DNA from: Oligoflexus sp.
GTDB lineage: Bacteria; Bdellovibrionota_B; Oligoflexia; Oligoflexales; Oligoflexaceae
Length of the DNA stretch: 64,000 nt
Reading direction: 5' to 3'
NCBI GenBank assembly: GCA_041736305.1
Contig: JBGSTX010000334.1
Coordinates: 8,754 to 72,753 of the forward strand
A program made the position numbers and the translations under genes. Under the pieces are notes generated by a model, which made no database searches, had not been told where the DNA came from, and saw only the letters and a list, made by a program, of their open reading frames with translations. Positions 147-41,882 of the stretch are shown piece after piece. Position 1 is the stretch's first letter, and each line of letters begins with the position of its first letter.

Positions 147-1238
147 ATGGATTATTCAATGCCCCAGCTTTTTCGGGCGCTGGTTCAGCAGAAAGCCAGT
201 GACCTTCACATTACTGTCGGTTCGCCGCCTCGTCTGCGGATCGACGGACAGATTGTACCGCTCAATTTACCTCCCCTCAACTCTCAGCAATCAATGGAGC
301 TGTGTTACAGCGTGCTGACCGAAGCTCAGAAGAAACACTTCGAGATTAGGAAGGAGGTCGATCTCTCGTTTTCGATCCCTAACATCGCCCGCTTCCGCGC
401 AAATATTTACTATCAACAGGGCGCTATCTCAGGCTCCTTCCGGGTCATTGCTCATCAAATTGTTGGATTGGATAACCTTGGAACTCCCCCCATCGTCAAA
501 AAACTATGTGAGCTGTCTCGAGGATTGGTCCTCGTTACAGGACCCACTGGTTCAGGCAAATCGAGTACGCTGGCGGCCATGCTCGACCATATCAATGAAA
601 ATCGTCATGATCACATCGTAACTATCGAAGACCCGATTGAATACGTTCATAGCCATAAAAACTGCATCATTAACCAGCGTGAACTAGGAGAGGATACGCA
701 GTCTTTCTCTGCCGCCTTGAAATCGGTTCTGCGCCAGGATCCTGATGTGATTCTAATTGGTGAGATGCGGGATCCCGAAACAATTGCAGCAGCTCTCACA
801 ATCGCTGAAACAGGCCATCTCGTATTCGGCACTCTGCACACTAACGGTGCTATCTCGAGTATCAACCGCATGATCGATTCCTTTCCTCCTCATCAGCAGT
901 CCCAGGTTCGAACCCAGCTAACGATGTCTCTAGAAGCCGTACTGTCACAGATCCTCATACCCCGCACCAACGGTGGGCGGGTTATGGCTATGGAAATTAT
1001 GATGATGACTCCTGCAATCCGCGCTCTGGTGTCTGAAGGAAAGATCCAACAGATCTATTCGAGCATGCAGACCGGACAAGCAGGCAGTGGTATGCAGACA
1101 TTGAATCAAAGCCTCCTCCATCTTTACCAGCGCAATATAATCGCCAAGGAAGTCGCGTTTCAGAAAAGCTCTAACCCTGATGAACTTACAGAAATGATGC
1201 AGAGTCCAGCGTTGAATCGCTCGGCTCGAGCTCGCTAA
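147..1238 (+). CDS. pilT: type IV pilus retraction ATPase PilT
   Basis: ASDLH N-terminal motif, Walker A GPTGSGKS, TIEDPIE, LRQDPDVILIGEMRD, GHLVFGTLH, GMQTL; GAGGAG RBS. Confidence 0.95.
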   Translation: MDYSMPQLFRALVQQKASDLHITVGSPPRLRIDGQIVPLNLPPLNSQQSMELCYSVLTEAQKKHFEIRKEVDLSFSIPNIARFRANIYYQQGAISGSFRVIAHQIVGLDNLGTPPIVKKLCELSRGLVLVTGPTGSGKSSTLAAMLDHINENRHDHIVTIEDPIEYVHSHKNCIINQRELGEDTQSFSAALKSVLRQDPDVILIGEMRDPETIAAALTIAETGHLVFGTLHTNGAISSINRMIDSFPPHQQSQVRTQLTMSLEAVLSQILIPRTNGGRVMAMEIMMMTPAIRALVSEGKIQQIYSSMQTGQAGSGMQTLNQSLLHLYQRNIIAKEVAFQKSSNPDELTEMMQSPALNRSARAR

Positions 1239-36141: not shown

Positions 36142-36534
36142 TTGGAGGATCGACCGGTGGCTAGAGAGCATTATTCGCTGGGACGAAGGGGCGAGAATTG
36201 GGTCGCCAACTTAGTCGAATCTCGAGGTTGGACAGTCCTAGCCCGCAATTGGCGCCGCCGCGGCGTAGAATTAGATATTGTGGCTTTACGTACCGGGGAC
36301 TTAATTATTCTAGAAGTGAAGACTCGCCGCGACTCGAGGGCGCTCGAAGATCCTCACCGAGTCCTCTCTTGGGGAAAACGTAAGGCGTTCATTCGAGGCG
36401 CTCATTTATACTTGAGTCATGAACAAGACCTTGCGGCTTTAAGCATTCGCCTCTATTTAGCGGTGCTACTGTTCGAAGGTGGGCGCTTTAAAGCTCGCTG
36501 GCATCCAATAGAGATCACCGACGATCTCGTGTAA
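36142..36534 (+). CDS. yraN: YraN family putative endonuclease
   Basis: LGRRGE, GWTVLARNWR, ELDIVA, EVKTR; follows rnhB. Confidence 0.88.
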   Translation: MEDRPVAREHYSLGRRGENWVANLVESRGWTVLARNWRRRGVELDIVALRTGDLIILEVKTRRDSRALEDPHRVLSWGKRKAFIRGAHLYLSHEQDLAALSIRLYLAVLLFEGGRFKARWHPIEITDDLV

Positions 36535-37114
36535 AAATTCGCCGGAATGTTAGATTGATCCGTGGCTCCACAGCTTTTTTTGTTTTTGCAATCGCATGCA
36601 CAAAATGTTCTTGAAGCTTTCCTCGCATAATCAGCAAACTTCCATCTTCCAATGCAATTTCAAAGCGTCGTTGGCTCACACTCTCCTTTTCTTTGATGAG
36701 AAAACGACGGGTTCCACCAAAACTAGCCGACGCGATGACTGGCTCACTTCCGAGCTCTTCTTCGTTATCTGCGTGATAGCCCTGGTAATGTCCGCCATCA
36801 GCATATCGATTAGCCAGAACTGCGTTAAAACGGCTTTGGGAATAGGCCTCGGCTTGCTTCCTTATGGAGATGAGATCTACCGTCCAAGGCAAAGGGGAGT
36901 TCTGTATTCCCGAGTACGAATAGGAAGCTTCGGGGTCCCCGTACCAGGCAGTAAGACGTGGAAGCTTGATGTCCCGCCCGTATATTTTTATTTTATCCTG
37001 TTTCCAGACCAGCGATCGGTCCAGCTCTTCAAACAGGGAAATTGGCCAGACCTTAGGCCAATATAGTATTTCACCGGTTGAATCAGAAAGAATAATTTCC
37101 GGCGCTCGATTCAA
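36515..37114 (-). CDS. AlkB-family 2OG-Fe(II) dioxygenase (ALKBH2/3-like)
   Basis: PRLTAWYGD, YSYSG, FNAVLANRY, HADNE, IASASFG, HAIAK, RINLTFR; TTG 37114 behind AAGGA avoids overlap with the vWA gene. Confidence 0.9.
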   Translation of the reverse strand: MNRAPEIILSDSTGEILYWPKVWPISLFEELDRSLVWKQDKIKIYGRDIKLPRLTAWYGDPEASYSYSGIQNSPLPWTVDLISIRKQAEAYSQSRFNAVLANRYADGGHYQGYHADNEEELGSEPVIASASFGGTRRFLIKEKESVSQRRFEIALEDGSLLIMRGKLQEHFVHAIAKTKKAVEPRINLTFRRIFTRDRR

Positions 37115-37145
37115 GTGCAGTCCTTTCAAAAAAGCCGCTGTCTCT

Positions 37146-38162
37146 TCAAAGGTTATATACGTACTTAGCTTGGAGGACCATTCCAGCTTTAAAACCGCTT
37201 GAGGGGAGCAGATAGACACGATTTTCCATCGCGTTAAAGTTCCAGGCATCAGGGCCTAGAGTCCTACCATCTATAGTGACAAGTATACGATCTGCACTCA
37301 GCGGCTTTTTCGATAAAAGGAGAGACGCACTGCGCTTCTTGATATCGTTAGAAAATCGTTGAAGTAAATCTGACCAATTATCCGAACAGATATCCAGCAC
37401 GGTGCCTCCTGTTCGCTTCGCCAAAGAAATATATTCTTCACCGACACGAGCGATTTCACAGCTGCCAGTGGACTCTGATGAATCGGGCACACCTATGATA
37501 CCGCTAACAGTGGCATTCCAAATGTTTTCAGGGTCAAAGTCTTCGGCAAGGTTACCAAAGTCATCATCGCGAGCAGAGTCATTTGAACCGTCATCGTCGC
37601 TAACTATTAACACTTCTAACTGGGCGTCGTCTCTAAATGAGAGTGGCTCGTCCATGGGCTCCCCGTAAACATCGAGGTAGCGGTCATCTAGCTCGCCTGA
37701 AAGAAGGGCAGACACGCGGCCGAGGGCATCGTGGCTGCCGACCGATTTCGCTACTAAAGCAGCCCGATCCACCTCGATCCCCGCGGGAAATTCAAAGACT
37801 ATCTTGGGGTCACTATTTTCATCTCTTTTACGTTTATCACGTCCTCCAGCTATTACATGTATCCTAGGATCTAGATCACTTTTTTGAAGACCTAGTAATA
37901 GAGTCTGAATATTGTTCTCTACTGCTTCTTTTTCTTCGTTCATACTCCCACTGGTATCAATAGCGACAACAAGGTCCAGCCCATTCAAGAGTTGGCTGCT
38001 ATCGGTATTGAGCGCGGATTGTCGGCTATCGAAATTTCCAATGGGGTTATAGTCGCTTAAGGAGCCTTTACTCCCTTGGCCACTAAGGTTTTTGAAGGTA
38101 TCGTTACAACCGTTCCCGAGGAGTGCCGCTGCCACGAACAGGCACAGTGAAGCCTTCTTCAT
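37146..38162 (-). CDS. vWA (MIDAS) domain lipoprotein
   Basis: MKKASLCLFVAAALLGNGC lipobox; DLVVAIDTSGSM, VLIVSDDD, TGG...DIC; C-terminal Ig-like strand pattern. Confidence 0.8.
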   Translation of the reverse strand: MKKASLCLFVAAALLGNGCNDTFKNLSGQGSKGSLSDYNPIGNFDSRQSALNTDSSQLLNGLDLVVAIDTSGSMNEEKEAVENNIQTLLLGLQKSDLDPRIHVIAGGRDKRKRDENSDPKIVFEFPAGIEVDRAALVAKSVGSHDALGRVSALLSGELDDRYLDVYGEPMDEPLSFRDDAQLEVLIVSDDDGSNDSARDDDFGNLAEDFDPENIWNATVSGIIGVPDSSESTGSCEIARVGEEYISLAKRTGGTVLDICSDNWSDLLQRFSNDIKKRSASLLLSKKPLSADRILVTIDGRTLGPDAWNFNAMENRVYLLPSSGFKAGMVLQAKYVYNL

Positions 38163-38199
38163 AGAAATCCCTCTATATTTCGGTCTTTTTCTTTGCTCC

Positions 38200-38226
38200 T
38201 TATCGGAAATATTTGGCAAAAGTTTA
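38200..38226 (-). promoter_or_regulatory. putative sigma28/FliA-like promoter for the vWA lipoprotein
   Basis: Minus strand TAAA-N15-TCCGATAA (one mismatch to consensus), 37 nt upstream of ATG 38162. Confidence 0.7.
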
Positions 38227-38493
38227 TCAAAACTAATAATTATTCCTAATTACCTCTACTTACAGAGTGGATAAAAATCTAGGATAGCAATTTAAGCTCT
38301 AGCTAAATCCTCCGTAGTCCGAGCTTTCACTGATACCTACCTATCCATAAGTCCTCATTACCAAAAAGTTCCATTTGCCAAATTATCCATTACTTATAGT
38401 TCTTTACATATAATTCCCTGCCAGGTGCTCCTCGTTTTTCTGCAGACTTATCCGATATAATTTTGTCGCTTTTACACGCTTTAAGGATGTTCC

Positions 38494-39993
38494 ATGAGCC
38501 ACAATTCTTCAGCCTTGAATCTCAACTTGAACTCGATCATCCGCTACCGCGAGCAGCGTATATTTATTGGCGACCATCAGCAGGCCTTAGCCTTATTCAG
38601 CTCGGAACATATTGATATTACCGAGGGTAAGATTATAAATGTCTCTCGCTTCGGTGCACGAATATCAATAGCTGAAGAAGCTGTATTTGTTAATCGCGGC
38701 GATCAGCTGAAAATAATCAGGCTCTATCTAGGCGACATAAGAATTTATGATGGCCCCGCGACGATTGTAAGCGAGATGCGGGCTTCCGATGGCTTTGTTG
38801 ACATCGGTCTCGCTCTCTTTGGCAACGGAGTCGATCTCGATCAAGTTAATGCCGTGCTTCAGATTGAGTCCACAATTGAGCCTCATCAGAACTTCCAAAG
38901 CATATCCGAGTTGAGCAAGCACATTGATCCCCGCTTCAAAATCCTGGTCGCTGACCTCAGCACACTATTTGCCGATCTGCGCGTAAAATTCAGGGAAGAA
39001 GAAAGACGTATTAGCGAGTCAGCGCTCTCTTCCTCCCATAAGCAGCGCCTCGAAGAACATGCAATCAGCGTTGCTGCTTCTTTATTCGGCAGCGACATAC
39101 AGTCGATATTCGATGATTTCACTAAGTTTGTCTATCAGATGGATTCTGACTCGATAGCACTTCATAAGAAGTACTTTCGTTCAAACTTTCACGCCTACAT
39201 ACTCGATGCGCCCTTTATCAATCGAGCTTTTAACAAGCCTCTCGGATATGCTGGTGATTTTGGTTTAATGGTCATGCTTTATGAGTACCAGGACATCGGC
39301 ACGACTCTTTTCGATAAATTTTTCCATCGTCTCGGCTGTACCGCTCCTTCTGCAGTTGCGAATAAAAACCGCGTCGTTTTCCTTTCAGACTTGATCTACC
39401 AGGAGTATGCGAAGCGTAGCGAAAAGGGTGATTTTTCGGTCGCTAGCATAGCTTGCGGACCAGCACGCGAAGTGCAGCTTTTCCTAAATCATCTTGCAGA
39501 AAATGGAGTCACACGACCGGTCAAGACTGTATGCCTTGACCGCGAACCTTACGCTCTCGACTATGCCCAGAGCCAGATTCGCAAGTCCATCAAGCCTGGT
39601 ACACCAGTTGAAACGGTCTTTCTAAAAGAAGATGCCGTACTCGGCATCATTAAAAAGAATCGATTCATCAGCGAGATCGCCGGCAGCACCATTATCAGCT
39701 GCGCTGGACTCTACGACTATCTTAGTGATCGGCTGGCGAGCAAAATGATTGAGGGCATGTATGCACTACTTGCGCCTGGAGGAACACTGCTCATCGGTAA
39801 CGTTTCAAATCAGATCCCAGATCGTTTTTCAATGGATTTTCTAATGGAGTGGAACCTCGTACTCCGTAGCTCAGAAGACATGATGCGCTTGGTGCCTGAC
39901 GCTATCTGTCAGGAGCGTGGTGCCTCCGTCGAAGTAGTTGCAGAGCCTCTTGGTCTCAACCTGTTCCTAAGGATAAAAAAGCCAAGTGAATAA
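38494..39993 (+). CDS. PhcB-like class I SAM methyltransferase with N-terminal PilZ-like domain
   Basis: RAFNKPLGYAGDF, ANKNRV, SIACGPAREV, CAGLYDYLSD, LAPGGTLLIGN, MEWNLVLRS; N-terminal IINVSRFGA; AAGGA RBS. Confidence 0.8.
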   Translation: MSHNSSALNLNLNSIIRYREQRIFIGDHQQALALFSSEHIDITEGKIINVSRFGARISIAEEAVFVNRGDQLKIIRLYLGDIRIYDGPATIVSEMRASDGFVDIGLALFGNGVDLDQVNAVLQIESTIEPHQNFQSISELSKHIDPRFKILVADLSTLFADLRVKFREEERRISESALSSSHKQRLEEHAISVAASLFGSDIQSIFDDFTKFVYQMDSDSIALHKKYFRSNFHAYILDAPFINRAFNKPLGYAGDFGLMVMLYEYQDIGTTLFDKFFHRLGCTAPSAVANKNRVVFLSDLIYQEYAKRSEKGDFSVASIACGPAREVQLFLNHLAENGVTRPVKTVCLDREPYALDYAQSQIRKSIKPGTPVETVFLKEDAVLGIIKKNRFISEIAGSTIISCAGLYDYLSDRLASKMIEGMYALLAPGGTLLIGNVSNQIPDRFSMDFLMEWNLVLRSSEDMMRLVPDAICQERGASVEVVAEPLGLNLFLRIKKPSE

Positions 39994-41434
39994 GGATATA
40001 AGTCAGCAATTTATCCAGTGCGAACAAGAACTGTTTATCAAACGCGGAAAGATTTCCGTTAGTGTAGCAGTAGTTCTTGTTCTTCTATTTTGGCTGGTAG
40101 ATTGGATTTATGCCCCGCACTTGGCTTGGTCTTTCCTAGCTTATCGCCTCGCCGTAATCCCAACAGTAATGATCTGTTTGTTTCTCTGGCGCCACAAAGC
40201 CTTCCGCGAACATCTCTATTTTATTCCAGGCTACATCGTTTGCGGCTATCTGGGTTTATACACGGCAGTTTTGATCTCCCTCAATGAGCAGGAAAATTCT
40301 CCTTACTACGCAGGGCTAAATCTTGTTACTTATGGTTCGCTTTTCTTTTTGCCTTGGCGGCGCTTTCATGCTGGGGTTTCAGTACTTCTCACCTATCTCC
40401 CTTATGTCGTTTCGATCACTTTAGTTTCGAAAGAAACTTTAGACTGGGCTCATTTAGCTCCCCATCTGGCTTTCTGCAGCAGTACGATTGGAATGGGCGC
40501 GATCGTGATGGAGTTGAGCCGTAAACTGCGTTTCCGGGAATTTGAAAGCCAGTATCTTCTCAATGTGGAGATCCTCACTAAAGATGCCGTGATTGCACAA
40601 AAATCTAAGGAAGCTGTACATCTTGAAAAGCTATCGCGGCAATTTTCACAGAGCGTGATCGATTCAGTTCGGATAGGATCCGTCTCAATTGACCATCCTC
40701 GCCGTGTGCTAGTCACCTGTCTATTTATCGACATCGAGAGTTCCACCGGCCGCTCAGTGCGCATTGACTATCAAGACTATGTCTCTGTTTTGAGCGATTT
40801 CTTTTCGGCTACCGCTAAAATCCTTTTAGATTTCAATTTGACCGTCAGCAGCTATCTTGGGGATGGGATGATGGCTTTTGCGAATGCCCCGGTCTACCAG
40901 CCGGATCATCAAGAAAGAACCTTGAAGGCCGCCTTGGAAATTCTCCGCATGCACGCTGCACGGCGTGATGCCTACATCAGAGAGTGGCGAAGTGATTTCA
41001 ATATCCGCATAGGCATCAATACTGGATTTGCATCAGTCGGATTTTTTCCTGCAGCTACAAAGAATTCCTACACCGCTGTTAGTCCACAGGTCACACTTGC
41101 CAGTCGACTCTGCTCTTATGCTGAACGAAACTCGGTGGCTATCACAAAGCCATTCCTCGTTCAAATAGGAGCATCTTTGAAAGATGCTCATGTAAAAAAT
41201 TTGCGCGTGGAACAAAATATAAAGGGATTCGAAGGCGAATCAATCGAAGTTTTGACTGTTCTGCCCATTTATAAAGATGTCGATCAGGAAGCCTGTCCTC
41301 GATGCCAAGGTCGCTATTCCATCGTCAATGAGCCCGGTGAAATCCAGGTTGTACGCTGTATGAGCTGCGGATTTACTGACGTCCGAGACGGCGCCATATC
41401 AATTAAACAGATTACCCTTCCTGAGGCTTCTTAA
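39986..41434 (+). CDS. multi-TM sensor fused to class III adenylate/guanylate cyclase domain with C-terminal zinc ribbon
   Basis: About 6 TM segments including SPYYAGLNLV; LFIDIESST, YLGDGMMA, IRIGINTG, YTA...LASRL, IKG; CPRC...CMSC; overlaps the upstream gene by 8 nt. Confidence 0.85.
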   Translation: MNKDISQQFIQCEQELFIKRGKISVSVAVVLVLLFWLVDWIYAPHLAWSFLAYRLAVIPTVMICLFLWRHKAFREHLYFIPGYIVCGYLGLYTAVLISLNEQENSPYYAGLNLVTYGSLFFLPWRRFHAGVSVLLTYLPYVVSITLVSKETLDWAHLAPHLAFCSSTIGMGAIVMELSRKLRFREFESQYLLNVEILTKDAVIAQKSKEAVHLEKLSRQFSQSVIDSVRIGSVSIDHPRRVLVTCLFIDIESSTGRSVRIDYQDYVSVLSDFFSATAKILLDFNLTVSSYLGDGMMAFANAPVYQPDHQERTLKAALEILRMHAARRDAYIREWRSDFNIRIGINTGFASVGFFPAATKNSYTAVSPQVTLASRLCSYAERNSVAITKPFLVQIGASLKDAHVKNLRVEQNIKGFEGESIEVLTVLPIYKDVDQEACPRCQGRYSIVNEPGEIQVVRCMSCGFTDVRDGAISIKQITLPEAS

Positions 41435-41449
41435 ATTCTACCCGAGCAA

Positions 41450-41478
41450 TAAAAAAAGCCTCATCGAATAATGAGGCT
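41450..41478 (-). terminator. intrinsic terminator of rplS, between convergent genes
   Basis: AGCCTCAT-6 nt loop-ATGAGGCT perfect stem followed by a T run on the minus strand. Confidence 0.85.
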
Positions 41479-41501: not shown

Positions 41502-41882
41502 TTACTTAACAGTGGCCACGTGACGACTACGGATACGAGCAGCCTTACCAGCTAGGGAGCGTAGGTAATAAAGACGCGAGCGACGGACGATACCGGCTGC
41601 AATCAATTCCACCTTAGCTATATGTGGCGAGAGAAGAGGAAACACACGTTCAACACCAATGCTGTTGGCGCCGATCTTACGGACAGTAAACGATCCTTCG
41701 ACATGGCCTTTCTTGCGAGCAAGAACCACGCCTTCAAATTGCTGGATACGAAATTTACCGGCTTCTGCACCTTCTTGAAGCTTATAGTGCACTCTAACAG
41801 TGTCGCCAGGGCGAAACTTAGGGAAGGTGTTTTCTAGCGGGAATTTTTTCTTTTCAAAGTTACTGATGATTGCATTTTTCAT
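41502..41882 (-). CDS. rplS: 50S ribosomal protein L19
   Basis: FRPGDTVRVH, RIQQFEGVV, FTVRK, GVERVFP, VRRSRLYYLR...GKAARI. Confidence 0.97.
   Translation of the reverse strand: MKNAIISNFEKKKFPLENTFPKFRPGDTVRVHYKLQEGAEAGKFRIQQFEGVVLARKKGHVEGSFTVRKIGANSIGVERVFPLLSPHIAKVELIAAGIVRRSRLYYLRSLAGKAARIRSRHVATVK

Follow-up and report, generated by a model that had tools for sequence, protein, structure and literature searches.

A PhcB-type methyltransferase gene overlapping a predicted six-transmembrane cyclase gene in Oligoflexus: a candidate synthase-receptor pair

Organisation of the locus

The window (the whole 64,000 nt stretch of Oligoflexus sp. DNA analysed here) contains an operon of two genes on the plus strand, located between a divergent intergenic spacer and the convergent ribosomal protein gene rplS, with no response regulators adjoining. 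The features of the locus are:

38494..39993, plus strand: gene 1, PhcB-family class I SAM-dependent methyltransferase of 499 aa, candidate signal synthase
39986..41434, plus strand: gene 2, protein of 482 aa with the order MASE8, helix, class III cyclase, zinc ribbon
39986..39993, plus strand: 8-nt overlap GTGAATAA, gene 2 start over gene 1 stop (ORF table and sequence)
38220..38493, no strand: AT-rich divergent intergenic region of 274 nt (35.4% G+C vs. 49% in the window)
38213..38240, plus strand: sigma-70-like promoter match, TTGGCA-16-AATAAT (10/12), ~250 nt 5' of gene 1, consensus match only
41457..41478, minus strand: hairpin whose T-run is on the minus strand, serving as terminator for the convergent rplS and possibly in both directions

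Gene 1 starts with ATG and gene 2 with GTG in the ORF table, and the junction reads ...AAGCCAAGTGAATAA..., with the GTG of gene 2 at 39986 and the TAA stop of gene 1 at 39991-39993. The ORF coordinates and the junction sequence thus confirm the 8-nt overlap reported by the first-pass annotation, and the overlap suggests that the two genes are translationally coupled. The distance from the methyltransferase to the MASE8 match in related loci ranges from -9 to +55 nt. Upstream, the spacer is AT-rich and divergent, as had been described, with an ORF on the minus strand (37146..38219) as the divergent partner of gene 1; the sigma-70-like promoter match is weak, two sites being found vs. 5.3 expected in shuffled sequences. 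Downstream, a terminator hairpin had been assigned to the operon: the hairpin itself is real, yet its T-run lies on the minus strand, so it is the canonical terminator of rplS (41502..41882; Ribosomal_L19 match, E 6e-38), and it could serve the plus-strand operon only by working in both directions. The neighbours of the operon are rplS and one ORF without a Pfam match.

Domains of the two encoded proteins

Gene 1 is divided into three predicted domains:

38557..38817, plus strand: N-terminal six-stranded beta-barrel, PilZ-like, aa 22-108 (model), with R19-x-x-R22 and N49-x-S51-x-x-G54
38836..39201, plus strand: four-helix bundle, aa 115-236 (model)
39211..39990, plus strand: Rossmann methyltransferase domain, aa 240-499 (model, alignment, fold search)

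A total of 449 homologues of gene 1 were found, many of which are given the PhcB orthology-group name by one source ('extracellular factor (EF) 3-hydroxypalmitic acid methyl ester biosynthesis protein'). For direct comparison we used the methyltransferase of Paraburkholderia graminis pPHS1_P as a stand-in for the experimentally studied PhcB of Ralstonia solanacearum; it aligns with gene 1 end to end (BLASTP E 8e-39, 23% identity, 464 columns) and belongs to a phcBSRQ-like operon with the order methyltransferase-kinase-regulator-regulator, the kinase of which shares 63% identity with a protein of Ralstonia insidiosa and has close homologues named PhcS. The homologue names and this alignment support the original assignment to the PhcB family, and by sequence gene 1 is homologous over its full length to PhcB-type methyltransferases; at only 23% identity to the Paraburkholderia protein, its product may differ. 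The motifs quoted in the first-pass annotation are all present in the translations (KPLGYAGD, ACGPA, CAGLYDYL and MEWNLVLR in gene 1, SPYYAGLNLV in gene 2), and their reading there as PhcB- and PhcS-type was correct when sequences were compared. Within the family of gene 1, little or no variation is seen in KPLGYAGD, ACGPA (SAM motif I), D349 and CAGLYDYL, and C321, G322, E326, D349, L406, D408 and Y409 are invariant across 44 sequences. Generic Pfam methyltransferase models score below their cut-offs, whilst the AlphaFold model (pLDDT 88.8) exhibits a Rossmann fold whose Foldseek neighbours are methyltransferases of polyketide and fatty-acid synthases (PKS/FAS) and small-molecule methyltransferases of natural-product pathways (E down to 9e-12).

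The N-terminal barrel raises the question of which way information passes between the two proteins. Pfam PilZ matches 4 of 44 members of the gene 1 family, the Atlas neighbours of gene 1 carry PilZ, and the RxxR plus (D/N)xSxxG signature is kept in 54/55 close homologues and in all 36 readable methyltransferases adjoining MASE8-cyclases. The wiring could be reversed, an external cue acting through the MASE8 membrane domain of gene 2 on the cyclase, and the nucleotide then binding the barrel of the methyltransferase to control ester synthesis. We consider this very improbable: the same signature is kept in six methyltransferases paired with MASE8-kinases (L061-L064, L066, L069) and therefore does not track cyclase output, the ligand of PilZ domains, c-di-GMP, is not a product of class III cyclases, and the barrel has RxxR in place of the canonical RxxxR. 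The PilZ-type motif is absent from the PhcB-like protein of Paraburkholderia, unlike the window's methyltransferase.

Gene 2 contains four regions:

39986..40525, plus strand: six-transmembrane (TM) sensor domain, aa 1-180, homologous to the PhcS TM domain (Pfam MASE8)
40526..40681, plus strand: linker, aa 181-232, TM6 continued as one long cytoplasmic helix plus a short helix (model)
40700..41266, plus strand: class III nucleotidyl cyclase catalytic domain, aa 239-427
41288..41389, plus strand: C-terminal four-Cys zinc ribbon, C437, C440, C458 and C461

The AlphaFold model, hydropathy and K+R charge counts agree on six TM helices with both termini inside, matching the roughly six helices first proposed. 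A S-P-Y-Y-A-G-L-N-L motif is predicted at the outer end of TM4; the positions of its general form, S-x-Y-Y-(A/V)-G-L-N-L, are kept in 34-43 of 44 cyclase-family members, and the same motif is present in PhcS-like proteins of Ralstonia insidiosa and Cupriavidus. Homology of the TM region to the PhcS sensor was a point on which the first-pass annotation had said its proposal could fail, and the comparisons bear it out. An hhalign comparison of the TM region of the cyclase family (43 sequences) with that of PhcS (118 sequences) gave a probability of 99.3% (E 1.3e-20, 179 columns), vs. 0.3% (E 0.2) in reversed controls; the TM region of gene 2 itself matches the PhcS type by BLASTP (E 3e-4), the cyclase-family TM model matches the PhcS-like kinase of Paraburkholderia (E 1e-17), the two TM models cross-match, and phmmer recovers the MASE8-kinase P0489 (E 3.7e-22), which is 37% identical over the TM domain. 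Judged by these alignments, the TM domain of gene 2 is homologous to the PhcS sensor domain, which carries Pfam MASE8 (PF20968) in 120/120 PhcS-family kinases among the matches listed. PF20968 has no match on the window protein at E <= 1 (gathering cut-off 26.2 bits), a precomputed faint MASE8 match is listed for it, and the relative P0135 matches the whole model at 12.3 bits (E 0.2), below the 26.2-bit cut-off. A genome search with MASE8 returned no match, yet its controls were likewise unmatched.

Behind the TM domain, Pfam finds no HisKA or HATPase_c kinase domain and reports Guanylate_cyc instead; lacking this transmitter, gene 2 is not a PhcS orthologue but rather a MASE8 protein with another output. 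TM6 runs on into the long helix, the presumed signal-transducing linker, which has conserved residues at K206, E209, L213, L216 and Q219-F-S-P222 and which we take to resemble a 'cyclase transducer element'. The catalytic domain matches PF00211 (residues 242-389, E 2e-13, 50.8 bits vs. a cut-off of 21.9) and 39 PDB sequences at E <= 0.1, the best being CyaB (3r5g, E 5.5e-15). Foldseek searches with the gene 2 model rank the full-length membrane cyclase Rv1625c/Cya first (7yzk_A, E 2.2e-13, 429 columns) and human AC5 second, and the TM-score (target-normalised) to soluble cyclase domains is 0.82-0.87. By sequence and predicted fold, the C-terminal domain belongs to the class III nucleotidyl cyclases, and the earlier claims of such a domain, and of its standing in place of the kinase output, hold.

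The catalytic residues are a mixture of canonical and altered ones. D249, D293 and R374, which from alignment to CyaB and the general pattern of the family we take to be the metal-binding aspartates and the transition-state arginine, are each present in 44/44 members, and T363, a class IIIb-type Thr at the Asp site, in >= 90% of 43. The substrate Lys site is occupied by S289 (in the family of 44: K 22, T 13, N 6, S 3) and the transition-state Asn site by T370 (N 41, T 3), a residue that the window protein shares with its two closest relatives alone. These two replacements make the activity and product of the window's cyclase uncertain. Its cyclase could therefore be weak or dead within the same module and wiring, the output passing through protein-protein contacts made by the cyclase-like domain or the zinc ribbon; the Asn site also varies in several other family members (L032, L033, L038, L045, L053), and the ribbon is conserved in the family, its cysteines C437, C440, C458 and C461 being kept in 44, 36, 44 and 44 of 44 (the ribbon itself is supported by sub-threshold zinc-ribbon matches in Pfam and NCBIfam and by three strands in the model). 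We regard this as unlikely, as the metal-binding aspartates, the transition-state arginine and T363 are retained, the mycobacterial cyclases Rv1900c and Rv0386 are active despite lacking the canonical Lys, and the S289 and T370 substitutions are kept in relatives only 74% identical, which suggests constraint. Other members of the MASE8-cyclase family have canonical catalytic residues.

The non-canonical substrate-specifying residues also bear on a possible Pycsar-like role of the locus in phage defence, in which infection would prompt the cyclase to make a pyrimidine cyclic nucleotide. PADLOC PycC models do match the cyclase domain (best E 7.6e-12), but at 43 bits they score no better than the generic Pfam cyclase model (50.8 bits); no defence model matches gene 1, neither rplS nor the ORF without a Pfam match supplies an adjacent effector with a cNMP-binding domain, and the conserved partner is a PhcB-type methyltransferase, making this reading exceedingly improbable.

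Recurrence of the gene pair in other genomes

Homologues of each ORF number in the hundreds, and dozens of genomes repeat the gene order, a pattern far beyond chance. A neighbourhood survey had been named in advance as a way for the proposal to fail, and the synthase-sensor pairing is conserved: 7/10 relatives' loci found via gene 1 have a gene 2 homologue directly downstream, and a PhcB-like gene lies directly upstream on the same strand in 39/46 assessable MASE8-cyclase genes (mostly Bdellovibrionota; the adjacent synthase is missing for the other 7/46). The pairing extends to MASE8 loci without a cyclase (mostly kinases), where a PhcB-like gene is directly upstream in 28/30 assessable loci, from at least eight phyla by record titles. 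Synthase-MASE8 pairs are present in metagenome-assembled genomes labelled Verrucomicrobiota, Planctomycetota, Thermodesulfobacteriota, Nitrospirota, Acidobacteriota, Pseudomonadota (Gammaproteobacteria, Rickettsiales), Chloroflexota, Vulcanimicrobiota and Bdellovibrionota. Patristic distances in the methyltransferase and MASE8 trees are correlated (r 0.87 over 59 pairs, with a maximum of 0.13 in 500 shuffles), which at the level of the trees shows joint inheritance of the pair, not co-adaptation.

This distribution also bears on where the methyltransferase product acts. The product could be a metabolite of the cell's own membrane or lipid pathways, with the MASE8-cyclase reporting on fatty-acid or envelope metabolism in the same cell, a reading with which the almost wholly membrane-buried sensor with its short loops (model, hydropathy) and the PKS/FAS-associated fold neighbours of gene 1, which act on acyl intermediates, are both consistent. 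Against it, a dedicated synthase that stays beside its sensor in many phyla usually marks an autoinducer system, the only studied relatives make a secreted signal according to source extracts, and a same-genus genome (82% complete) in which the synthase is present and no MASE8-cyclase was found fits a signal shared between cells; we hold a purely intracellular role to be rather improbable. That genome and the 7/46 cyclase genes without an adjacent synthase do, however, weigh against a synthase-receptor module. The near-universal adjacency provides independent genomic support for MASE8 as the cognate receptor, a role still described as presumed for PhcS itself (extract of PMC13532016). The pairs across phyla suggest that lipid-ester signals with exchangeable outputs form a widespread and unexplored class; the studies of Phc-type signalling that we found are confined to Ralstonia and close relatives.

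The candidate circuit and related systems

Work on Ralstonia describes PhcB as the enzyme that synthesises 3-OH PAME/MAME and PhcS as the sensor (extracts of PMC7694676 and PMC13532016). PhcS is 'thought to perceive' the signal, and deletion of phcS alone leaves quorum sensing not abolished (extract of PMC13532016), so direct binding of a ligand to MASE8 would be by extension from this presumed role. We consider it moderately probable that gene 1 and gene 2 form a translationally coupled, Phc-type synthase-receptor module in which a nucleotide cyclase has taken the place of the histidine-kinase output. Like PhcB, which makes 3-hydroxy-fatty-acid methyl esters, gene 1 would make a lipophilic, presumably diffusible methyl ester, and the six-helix MASE8 domain of gene 2, a putative homodimer-type membrane cyclase with the same sensor domain as PhcS, would perceive this ester in the membrane. 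The continuous helix from TM6 to the catalytic domain would then switch synthesis of a cyclic nucleotide, whether up or down and whichever nucleotide it may be, and the six proteins with a PF00027 cNMP-binding domain encoded in the genome could read the product. A more elaborate version combines a natural, ligand-gated six-TM cyclase whose lipid ligand is made next door with a window-clade cyclase (Ser, Thr or Asn for the purine-binding Lys) that makes a nucleotide other than cAMP, and with a PilZ-type barrel of the synthase that binds a cyclic (di)nucleotide, giving post-translational feedback that ties signal synthesis to perception; as a whole we think this decidedly unlikely.

Our literature searches found no description of a PhcB-like synthase arranged with a MASE8-cyclase and no experiment on a member of the MASE8-cyclase family. 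The phcBSRQ system of Ralstonia (PhcB: methyl 3-hydroxymyristate/palmitate) has a homologous synthase family and a six-TM MASE8 sensor, with the synthase directly upstream of the sensor in both, but its output is HisKA/HATPase, whilst the window has a class III cyclase plus zinc ribbon and no adjoining response regulators, at an identity of 23-26%. Rv1625c/Cya of Mycobacterium tuberculosis and the mammalian membrane adenylyl cyclases exhibit the same order of six TM helices, helical domain and class III catalytic domain; gene 2 differs from them in its TM family (MASE8), its added C-terminal zinc ribbon and its residues, which are class IIIb-like (Thr at the Asp site) with the Lys and Asn replaced. 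Pseudomonas aeruginosa CyaB, a class IIIb adenylyl cyclase, gives the catalytic domain its best sequence match among solved structures and likewise has a membrane sensor domain, but its sensor is MASE2, for which Pfam gives no match on the window protein at E <= 1. We know of no synthase adjacent to CyaB.

The closest precedents of the arrangement are RpfF/RpfR and a synthetic CqsS-cyclase chimera. In RpfF/RpfR of Burkholderia cenocepacia (BDSF), as far as the source extracts go, a fatty-acid-type autoinducer synthase is likewise combined with a one-protein receptor that turns the signal directly into a change in a nucleotide second messenger, but the proteins are unrelated to the window pair and RpfR is a soluble receptor acting on c-di-GMP rather than a class III cyclase behind a six-TM MASE8 sensor. 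In the CqsS-Rv1625c chimera (Beltz, Bassler & Schultz, eLife 2016, PMC4821796, in extract), CqsS, a quorum-sensing receptor with six TM helices that responds to a lipophilic autoinducer, is likewise fused to a class III cyclase, and CAI-1 stimulated the chimera 4.8-fold; the same paper reports only remote, local similarity of natural cyclase anchors to CqsS. The chimera is man-made and its receptor is of another family, whereas the window's fusion is natural and a putative ligand synthase is encoded adjacent to it. An extract of the 2025 review PMC12414865 treats the chimera as proof of concept for cyclase membrane anchors as receptors and the role of the TM domain in membrane adenylyl cyclases as an open question, a 'blind spot', for which only synthetic proof-of-concept chimeras are cited there. 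The window's gene 2 would be a naturally occurring membrane cyclase that incorporates its own lipid-signal receptor, and as a natural cyclase with an autoinducer-sensor domain and an adjacent candidate ligand synthase it offers a directly testable model for the role of the cyclase TM domain.

The two-gene locus and its PhcB-family methyltransferase

Gene 1 and gene 2 lie on the plus strand of the window, facing the ribosomal protein gene rplS:

38494..39993 (+), gene 1 ORF, 499 aa, ATG start (ORF table)
39986..41434 (+), gene 2 ORF, 482 aa, GTG start (ORF table)
41457-41478, hairpin with its T-run on the minus strand, terminator of rplS
3' of gene 2 (-), rplS, convergent (Ribosomal_L19, E 6e-38)

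The first-pass annotation had described two genes overlapping by 8 nt, and the window sequence bears this out (GTGAATAA), as it does the motifs quoted there, all of which were found in the two translations. The AT-rich divergent spacer upstream is likewise present: the 274 nt 5' of gene 1 have 35.4% G+C, against 49% for the window, and beyond them lies a divergent minus-strand ORF without a Pfam match. The downstream terminator hairpin is real, but because its T-run is on the minus strand it is the terminator of rplS, and for the plus-strand pair it is bidirectional at best. The GTG start of gene 2 agrees with its homologues, which are of equal length and whose alignments begin at residues 1-10, and with the 8-nt overlap this points to a two-gene operon that is probably translationally coupled. 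That divergent ORF (37146..38219 (-), lipoprotein-like) and the 2OG-Fe(II) oxygenase ORF downstream of it (36515..37249 (-), PF13532, E 3.5e-30) share roughly 100 nt in the ORF table; the true start of one of them is probably further in.

Generic Pfam methyltransferase models match gene 1 only below their cut-offs, NCBIfam gave no meaningful match, and a sequence search of the PDB gave none. A word-indexed search (8000 scored candidates) returned 449 homologues at E ≤ 1e-3. In the best 120 of these, 57 reach E ≤ 1e-100, the window's own protein included; the other 56 are 37-81% identical to gene 1 and the remaining 63 are 26-33% identical. Many of the 120 are named 'extracellular factor (EF) 3-hydroxypalmitic acid methyl ester biosynthesis protein' by one source, which is the PhcB orthology group. 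The plasmid collection yielded no Ralstonia record and one full-length match (tblastn), on Paraburkholderia graminis pPHS1_P. Downstream of the methyltransferase on that plasmid come an 'ATP-binding protein' and then two response regulators, the same order as the phcBSRQ arrangement described in a passage of PMC7694676. Gene 1 aligns with this methyltransferase over 464 columns (23% identity, E 8e-39), and KPLGYAGD, (A/G)CGPA, CAGL(Y/F)DYL and EW are common to both. On this alignment and the naming of its homologues, the PhcB-family assignment of the first-pass annotation holds, the PhcB and PhcS references being stand-ins from Paraburkholderia, Cupriavidus and Ralstonia insidiosa rather than the studied R. 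solanacearum proteins.

An AlphaFold model of gene 1 (44-sequence alignment, pLDDT 88.8) divides the protein into three parts:

aa 22-108 (+), six-stranded barrel
aa 115-236 (+), four-helix bundle
aa 240-499 (+), Rossmann domain

The best Foldseek match was 3ocj, followed by methyltransferases of polyketide, fatty-acid and natural-product pathways; the named neighbours are AprA MT2, CurJ, LepI and the methyltransferase-like domain of human FAS. These neighbours would fit a small acyl compound as substrate rather than a protein. The SAM-binding residues are invariant across the gene 1 family.

A PhcS-type sensor domain joined to a class III cyclase domain

The class III cyclase domain previously read in gene 2 is recovered by Pfam as Guanylate_cyc at residues 242-389 (50.8 bits against a cut-off of 21.9), and the closest solved relative of the catalytic domain is Pseudomonas aeruginosa CyaB (3r5g, E 5.5e-15). 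Zinc-ribbon matches at residues 435-469 are sub-threshold in Pfam, and NCBIfam likewise gave only a sub-threshold zinc ribbon. The predicted structure (pLDDT 90.2) has the following order:

N-terminal (+), six TM helices
to residue 219 (+), TM6 as one continuous helix
222-230 (+), short helix
239-427 (+), cyclase fold
444-468 (+), three-stranded ribbon

Foldseek ranked the full-length membrane cyclase Rv1625c/Cya (7yzk) first, then human AC5. Charge counts place the N and C termini inside and, with the family alignment, set an invariant S-P-Y-Y-A-G-L-N-L motif where TM4 ends on the outer side; the zinc ribbon is also conserved across the family. The family is small: the homologue search gave 44 full-length members, the window's own protein included (E ≤ 1.7e-55), below which scores drop abruptly to cyclase-domain-only matches (E 1.8e-19), and phmmer found 107 proteins at E ≤ 1e-30 among 1.84 billion cluster representatives.

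The sensor domain was compared with P0241, the PhcS-like kinase of the P. graminis pPHS1_P operon. A search with P0241 gave 7047 homologues (E ≤ 1e-3), of which the best 120 all carry PF20968 (MASE8) and HATPase_c and 118 also carry HisKA; among the matches listed several are named PhcS and one, from Cupriavidus taiwanensis, 'repressor of PhcA', whilst a relative from R. insidiosa is 63% identical. Since the homologues listed all carry PF20968 and several are named PhcS, MASE8 is the PhcS sensor domain. The homology of the gene 2 TM region to it, suggested earlier from motifs, was confirmed by BLASTP (residues 19-142 with P0241 25-148, 26%, E 3e-4) and by hhalign of 43 cyclase-family against 118 PhcS-family TM domains (probability 99.3%, E 1.3e-20, 179 columns), with either alignment reversed giving a probability of 0.3% and E 0.2 as control. 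The cyclase-family TM model matches the Paraburkholderia PhcS-like kinase at E 1e-17, phmmer with gene 2 finds a MASE8-kinase (E 3.7e-22) whose TM domain is 37% identical, and MASE8-bearing clusters rank first in an atlas look-up of residues 1-215. The curated Pfam MASE8 model stays below cut-off on the gene 2 protein, and has no match in its own genome or in 14 control genomes, the blank controls making that genome scan uninformative. We class the TM domain as a divergent MASE8 by homology, not by Pfam threshold. One 794-aa match (P0425), considered as a synthase-receptor fusion (Rosetta stone), is a Ser/Thr protein kinase-MASE8-cyclase instead, with a Pkinase domain (E 9e-51) fused ahead of the MASE8-cyclase; the sensor is thereby joined to a third kind of signalling domain.

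Catalytic positions of gene 2: residue in the window protein; residues in the family
Metal-binding Asp 249: D; 44/44
Metal-binding Asp 293: D; 44/44
Transition-state Arg 374: R; 44/44
Thr 363, which we take to be the class IIIb equivalent of the substrate Asp: T; at least 90% of 43
Substrate Lys site, position 289: S; K 22, T 13, N 6, S 3
Catalytic Asn site, position 370: T; N 41, T 3

Thr stands at the Asn site in three proteins, namely the window protein and the two relatives closest to it. Among the loci, the large clade is canonical (DKFLGDG and VNLASR), and in the clade of the window protein the Lys site reads GT(Y/F), AN or SS. Five loci (L032, L033, L038, L045 and L053) have a canonical DKF at the Lys site but Pro, His or Ile at the Asn site, so the Asn has been lost repeatedly in the family and not only in the window protein. 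With the metal-binding Asp, the Arg and the Thr kept, and Lys and Asn mostly canonical in the large clade, the family taken together resembles functional class IIIb adenylyl cyclases; the copy in the window, by its residues the most divergent in the family, is a candidate cyclase. Loss of the canonical Lys is compatible with activity in other cyclases (Rv1900c, Rv0386). PADLOC PycC models match the gene 2 domain no better than a generic model, and gene 1 matches none. The genome encodes three other class III cyclases and six cNMP-binding-domain proteins above the Pfam cut-off, so any cNMP signal would have readers.

Pairing and shared descent of synthase and sensor

We surveyed gene 1 neighbourhoods in a set of 41 related genomes that contains the window's own; 10 genomes had a match, and the search gave ten non-self loci. 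A gene 2 homologue lies directly downstream in seven of the ten; of the others, one is cut at a contig end, one is a fragment, and the third, L002, has no adjacent cyclase. In L002 (same genus, genome G010, 1447-2976) a methyltransferase 54% identical to gene 1 stands alone, with only two short ORFs (72 and 70 aa) in the 650 nt downstream and then two minus-strand ORFs. A MASE8-cyclase was not found with the gene 2 query in this genome, which is 82% complete; L002 may mark a producer that lacks the receptor, or a gap in the assembly.

From the gene 2 side, a scan of 185,579 species genomes left 79 loci, picked by likeness to the gene 2 protein and so a sample, not a census, which were annotated with five HMMs built from our own alignments. 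They hold 49 MASE8-cyclase genes in 47 loci, of which 46 were assessable, three at contig starts being left out, and a PhcB-like gene is directly upstream on the same strand in 39 of the 46, at distances of -9 to +55 nt. MASE8 with another output occurs in 31 loci (26 with a PhcS-type kinase domain, five with neither domain), and the same arrangement holds in 28 of the 30 assessable, the exceptions being L080 and L084, with L087 cut. Among the cyclase exceptions, five (L019, L027, L039, L054, L060) have no methyltransferase within 1.7-5 kb upstream, L045 has a divergent one, and in L032 the gene is a second tandem cyclase. The pairing that the first-pass annotation proposed is thus kept elsewhere, whichever gene is taken as the starting point. 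Variants of the arrangement include two tandem synthase-MASE8-cyclase pairs (L037, 3435-9126), one synthase followed by two MASE8-cyclases (L032, 8-4133), and an extra MASE8-kinase gene beside the synthase-cyclase pair (L013, 6701-8008; L015, 6467-7663), where a single signal may drive both outputs.

Going by record titles, the cyclase type is hardly seen outside Bdellovibrionota, and the kinase type is spread over Verrucomicrobiota, Planctomycetota, Thermodesulfobacteriota, Nitrospirota, Acidobacteriota, Gammaproteobacteria, Rickettsiales, Chloroflexota and Vulcanimicrobiota. Counting across the phylum with the full-length profile (E ≤ 1e-30) gave 52 of 131 genomes, an overcount as cyclase-only matches pass; judged by query coverage, about 13 of the 131 have a full-length MASE8-cyclase.

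The main groups agree between quick maximum-likelihood trees built from 82 MASE8 domains and from 59 adjacent methyltransferases. In each tree the pair of the window falls with the PhcS-like kinase group, together with those of L013-L015 and L017 (support 86 for MASE8 and 100, starred, for the methyltransferase), and kinase-type sensors from Gammaproteobacteria are nested inside the larger cyclase clade. Over 59 pairs the patristic distances have a correlation of r 0.87, against a maximum of 0.13 in 500 shuffles. The matching trees and this correlation show joint inheritance of synthase and sensor and an exchange of outputs on closely related sensors, which is not in itself evidence of co-adaptation. 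The cyclase label needs four changes on the tree, of which starred branches force only one, many branches being weakly supported.

The N-terminal barrel of gene 1 also has a PilZ-like signature, R-x-x-R with (D/N)-x-S-x-x-G (window 38548-38658, aa 19-55); the canonical first PilZ motif is RxxxR, where gene 1 has RxxR. It is kept in 54 of 55 close gene 1 homologues and, among the methyltransferase N-termini of L013-L069, in all 36 readable ones adjoining MASE8-cyclases and in six adjoining kinase-type sensors (L061-L064, L066, L069), and is lost in the PhcS-like kinase group, the Paraburkholderia protein included. The pattern suggests that c-di-GMP or another ligand may gate signal synthesis, in one clade only. 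Feedback from the cyclase onto gene 1 through this barrel lost support, as those six partners of MASE8-kinases keep the same motif.

The proposed circuit and known systems

In the circuit we propose, the methyltransferase would use SAM to esterify a fatty-acid-type carboxylate, as PhcB and the fold neighbours suggest, and the lipophilic ester would partition into the membranes of the producer and its neighbours. There it would bind among the helices of MASE8, probably close to the conserved motif in the outer leaflet, and the TM6-linked helix and a conserved K-x-x-E-x3-L-x2-L-x2-Q-F-S-P element would relay the change to the dimeric catalytic domain, altering cNMP output. For PhcS itself, a section of PMC13532016 treats ester binding as presumed rather than demonstrated, with phcS deletion alone leaving quorum sensing intact, and a search of a second PhcS paper gave no statement about binding.

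The first-pass annotation was aware of no such circuit, and literature searches on PhcB, PhcS, adenylate cyclase and Bdellovibrio found no synthase-MASE8-cyclase wiring; the parts are known families, and their combination may be new. On MASE8 the searches found one preprint, which names the domain only, MASE7 was not found in the sensory-domain papers listed, nothing related turned up for the cyclase-transducer-element, and among the phcBSR papers listed none names a PhcB-like or PhcS-like protein or a homologue. Three precedents come closest. Ralstonia phc has the same synthase and sensor as the window's pair, but its output is a kinase, whilst RpfF/RpfR is described as taking a fatty-acid signal straight to c-di-GMP turnover. 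The CqsS-Rv1625c cyclase, a chimera stimulated 4.8-fold by CAI-1 according to an excerpt of PMC4821796, is engineered, whereas the window's fusion is natural. The authors of that paper report that natural cyclase anchors resemble quorum receptors only remotely; unlike this, the homology of the gene 2 TM domain to a quorum receptor is, by our alignments, unambiguous. The 6-TM data set of PMC4821796, whose cluster 3 comprises 42 untested class IIIb cyclases without HAMP, might include relatives.

Further MASE8 and cyclase genes occur in related genomes. In G041, a genome of the same class, MASE8-only matches at C5:6807-7433, C9:161931-162527 and C16:95151-95588 lie in open frames of 318, 1252 and 958 aa, and MASE8 may be joined to further outputs there. 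Cyclases are greatly expanded in the genus: five same-genus genomes (G002, G004, G006, G007 and G008) have 8-12 class III cyclase-domain matches each (E ≤ 1e-30), many of which fall inside open frames of 650-1450 aa, and G000 gave two in the same search.
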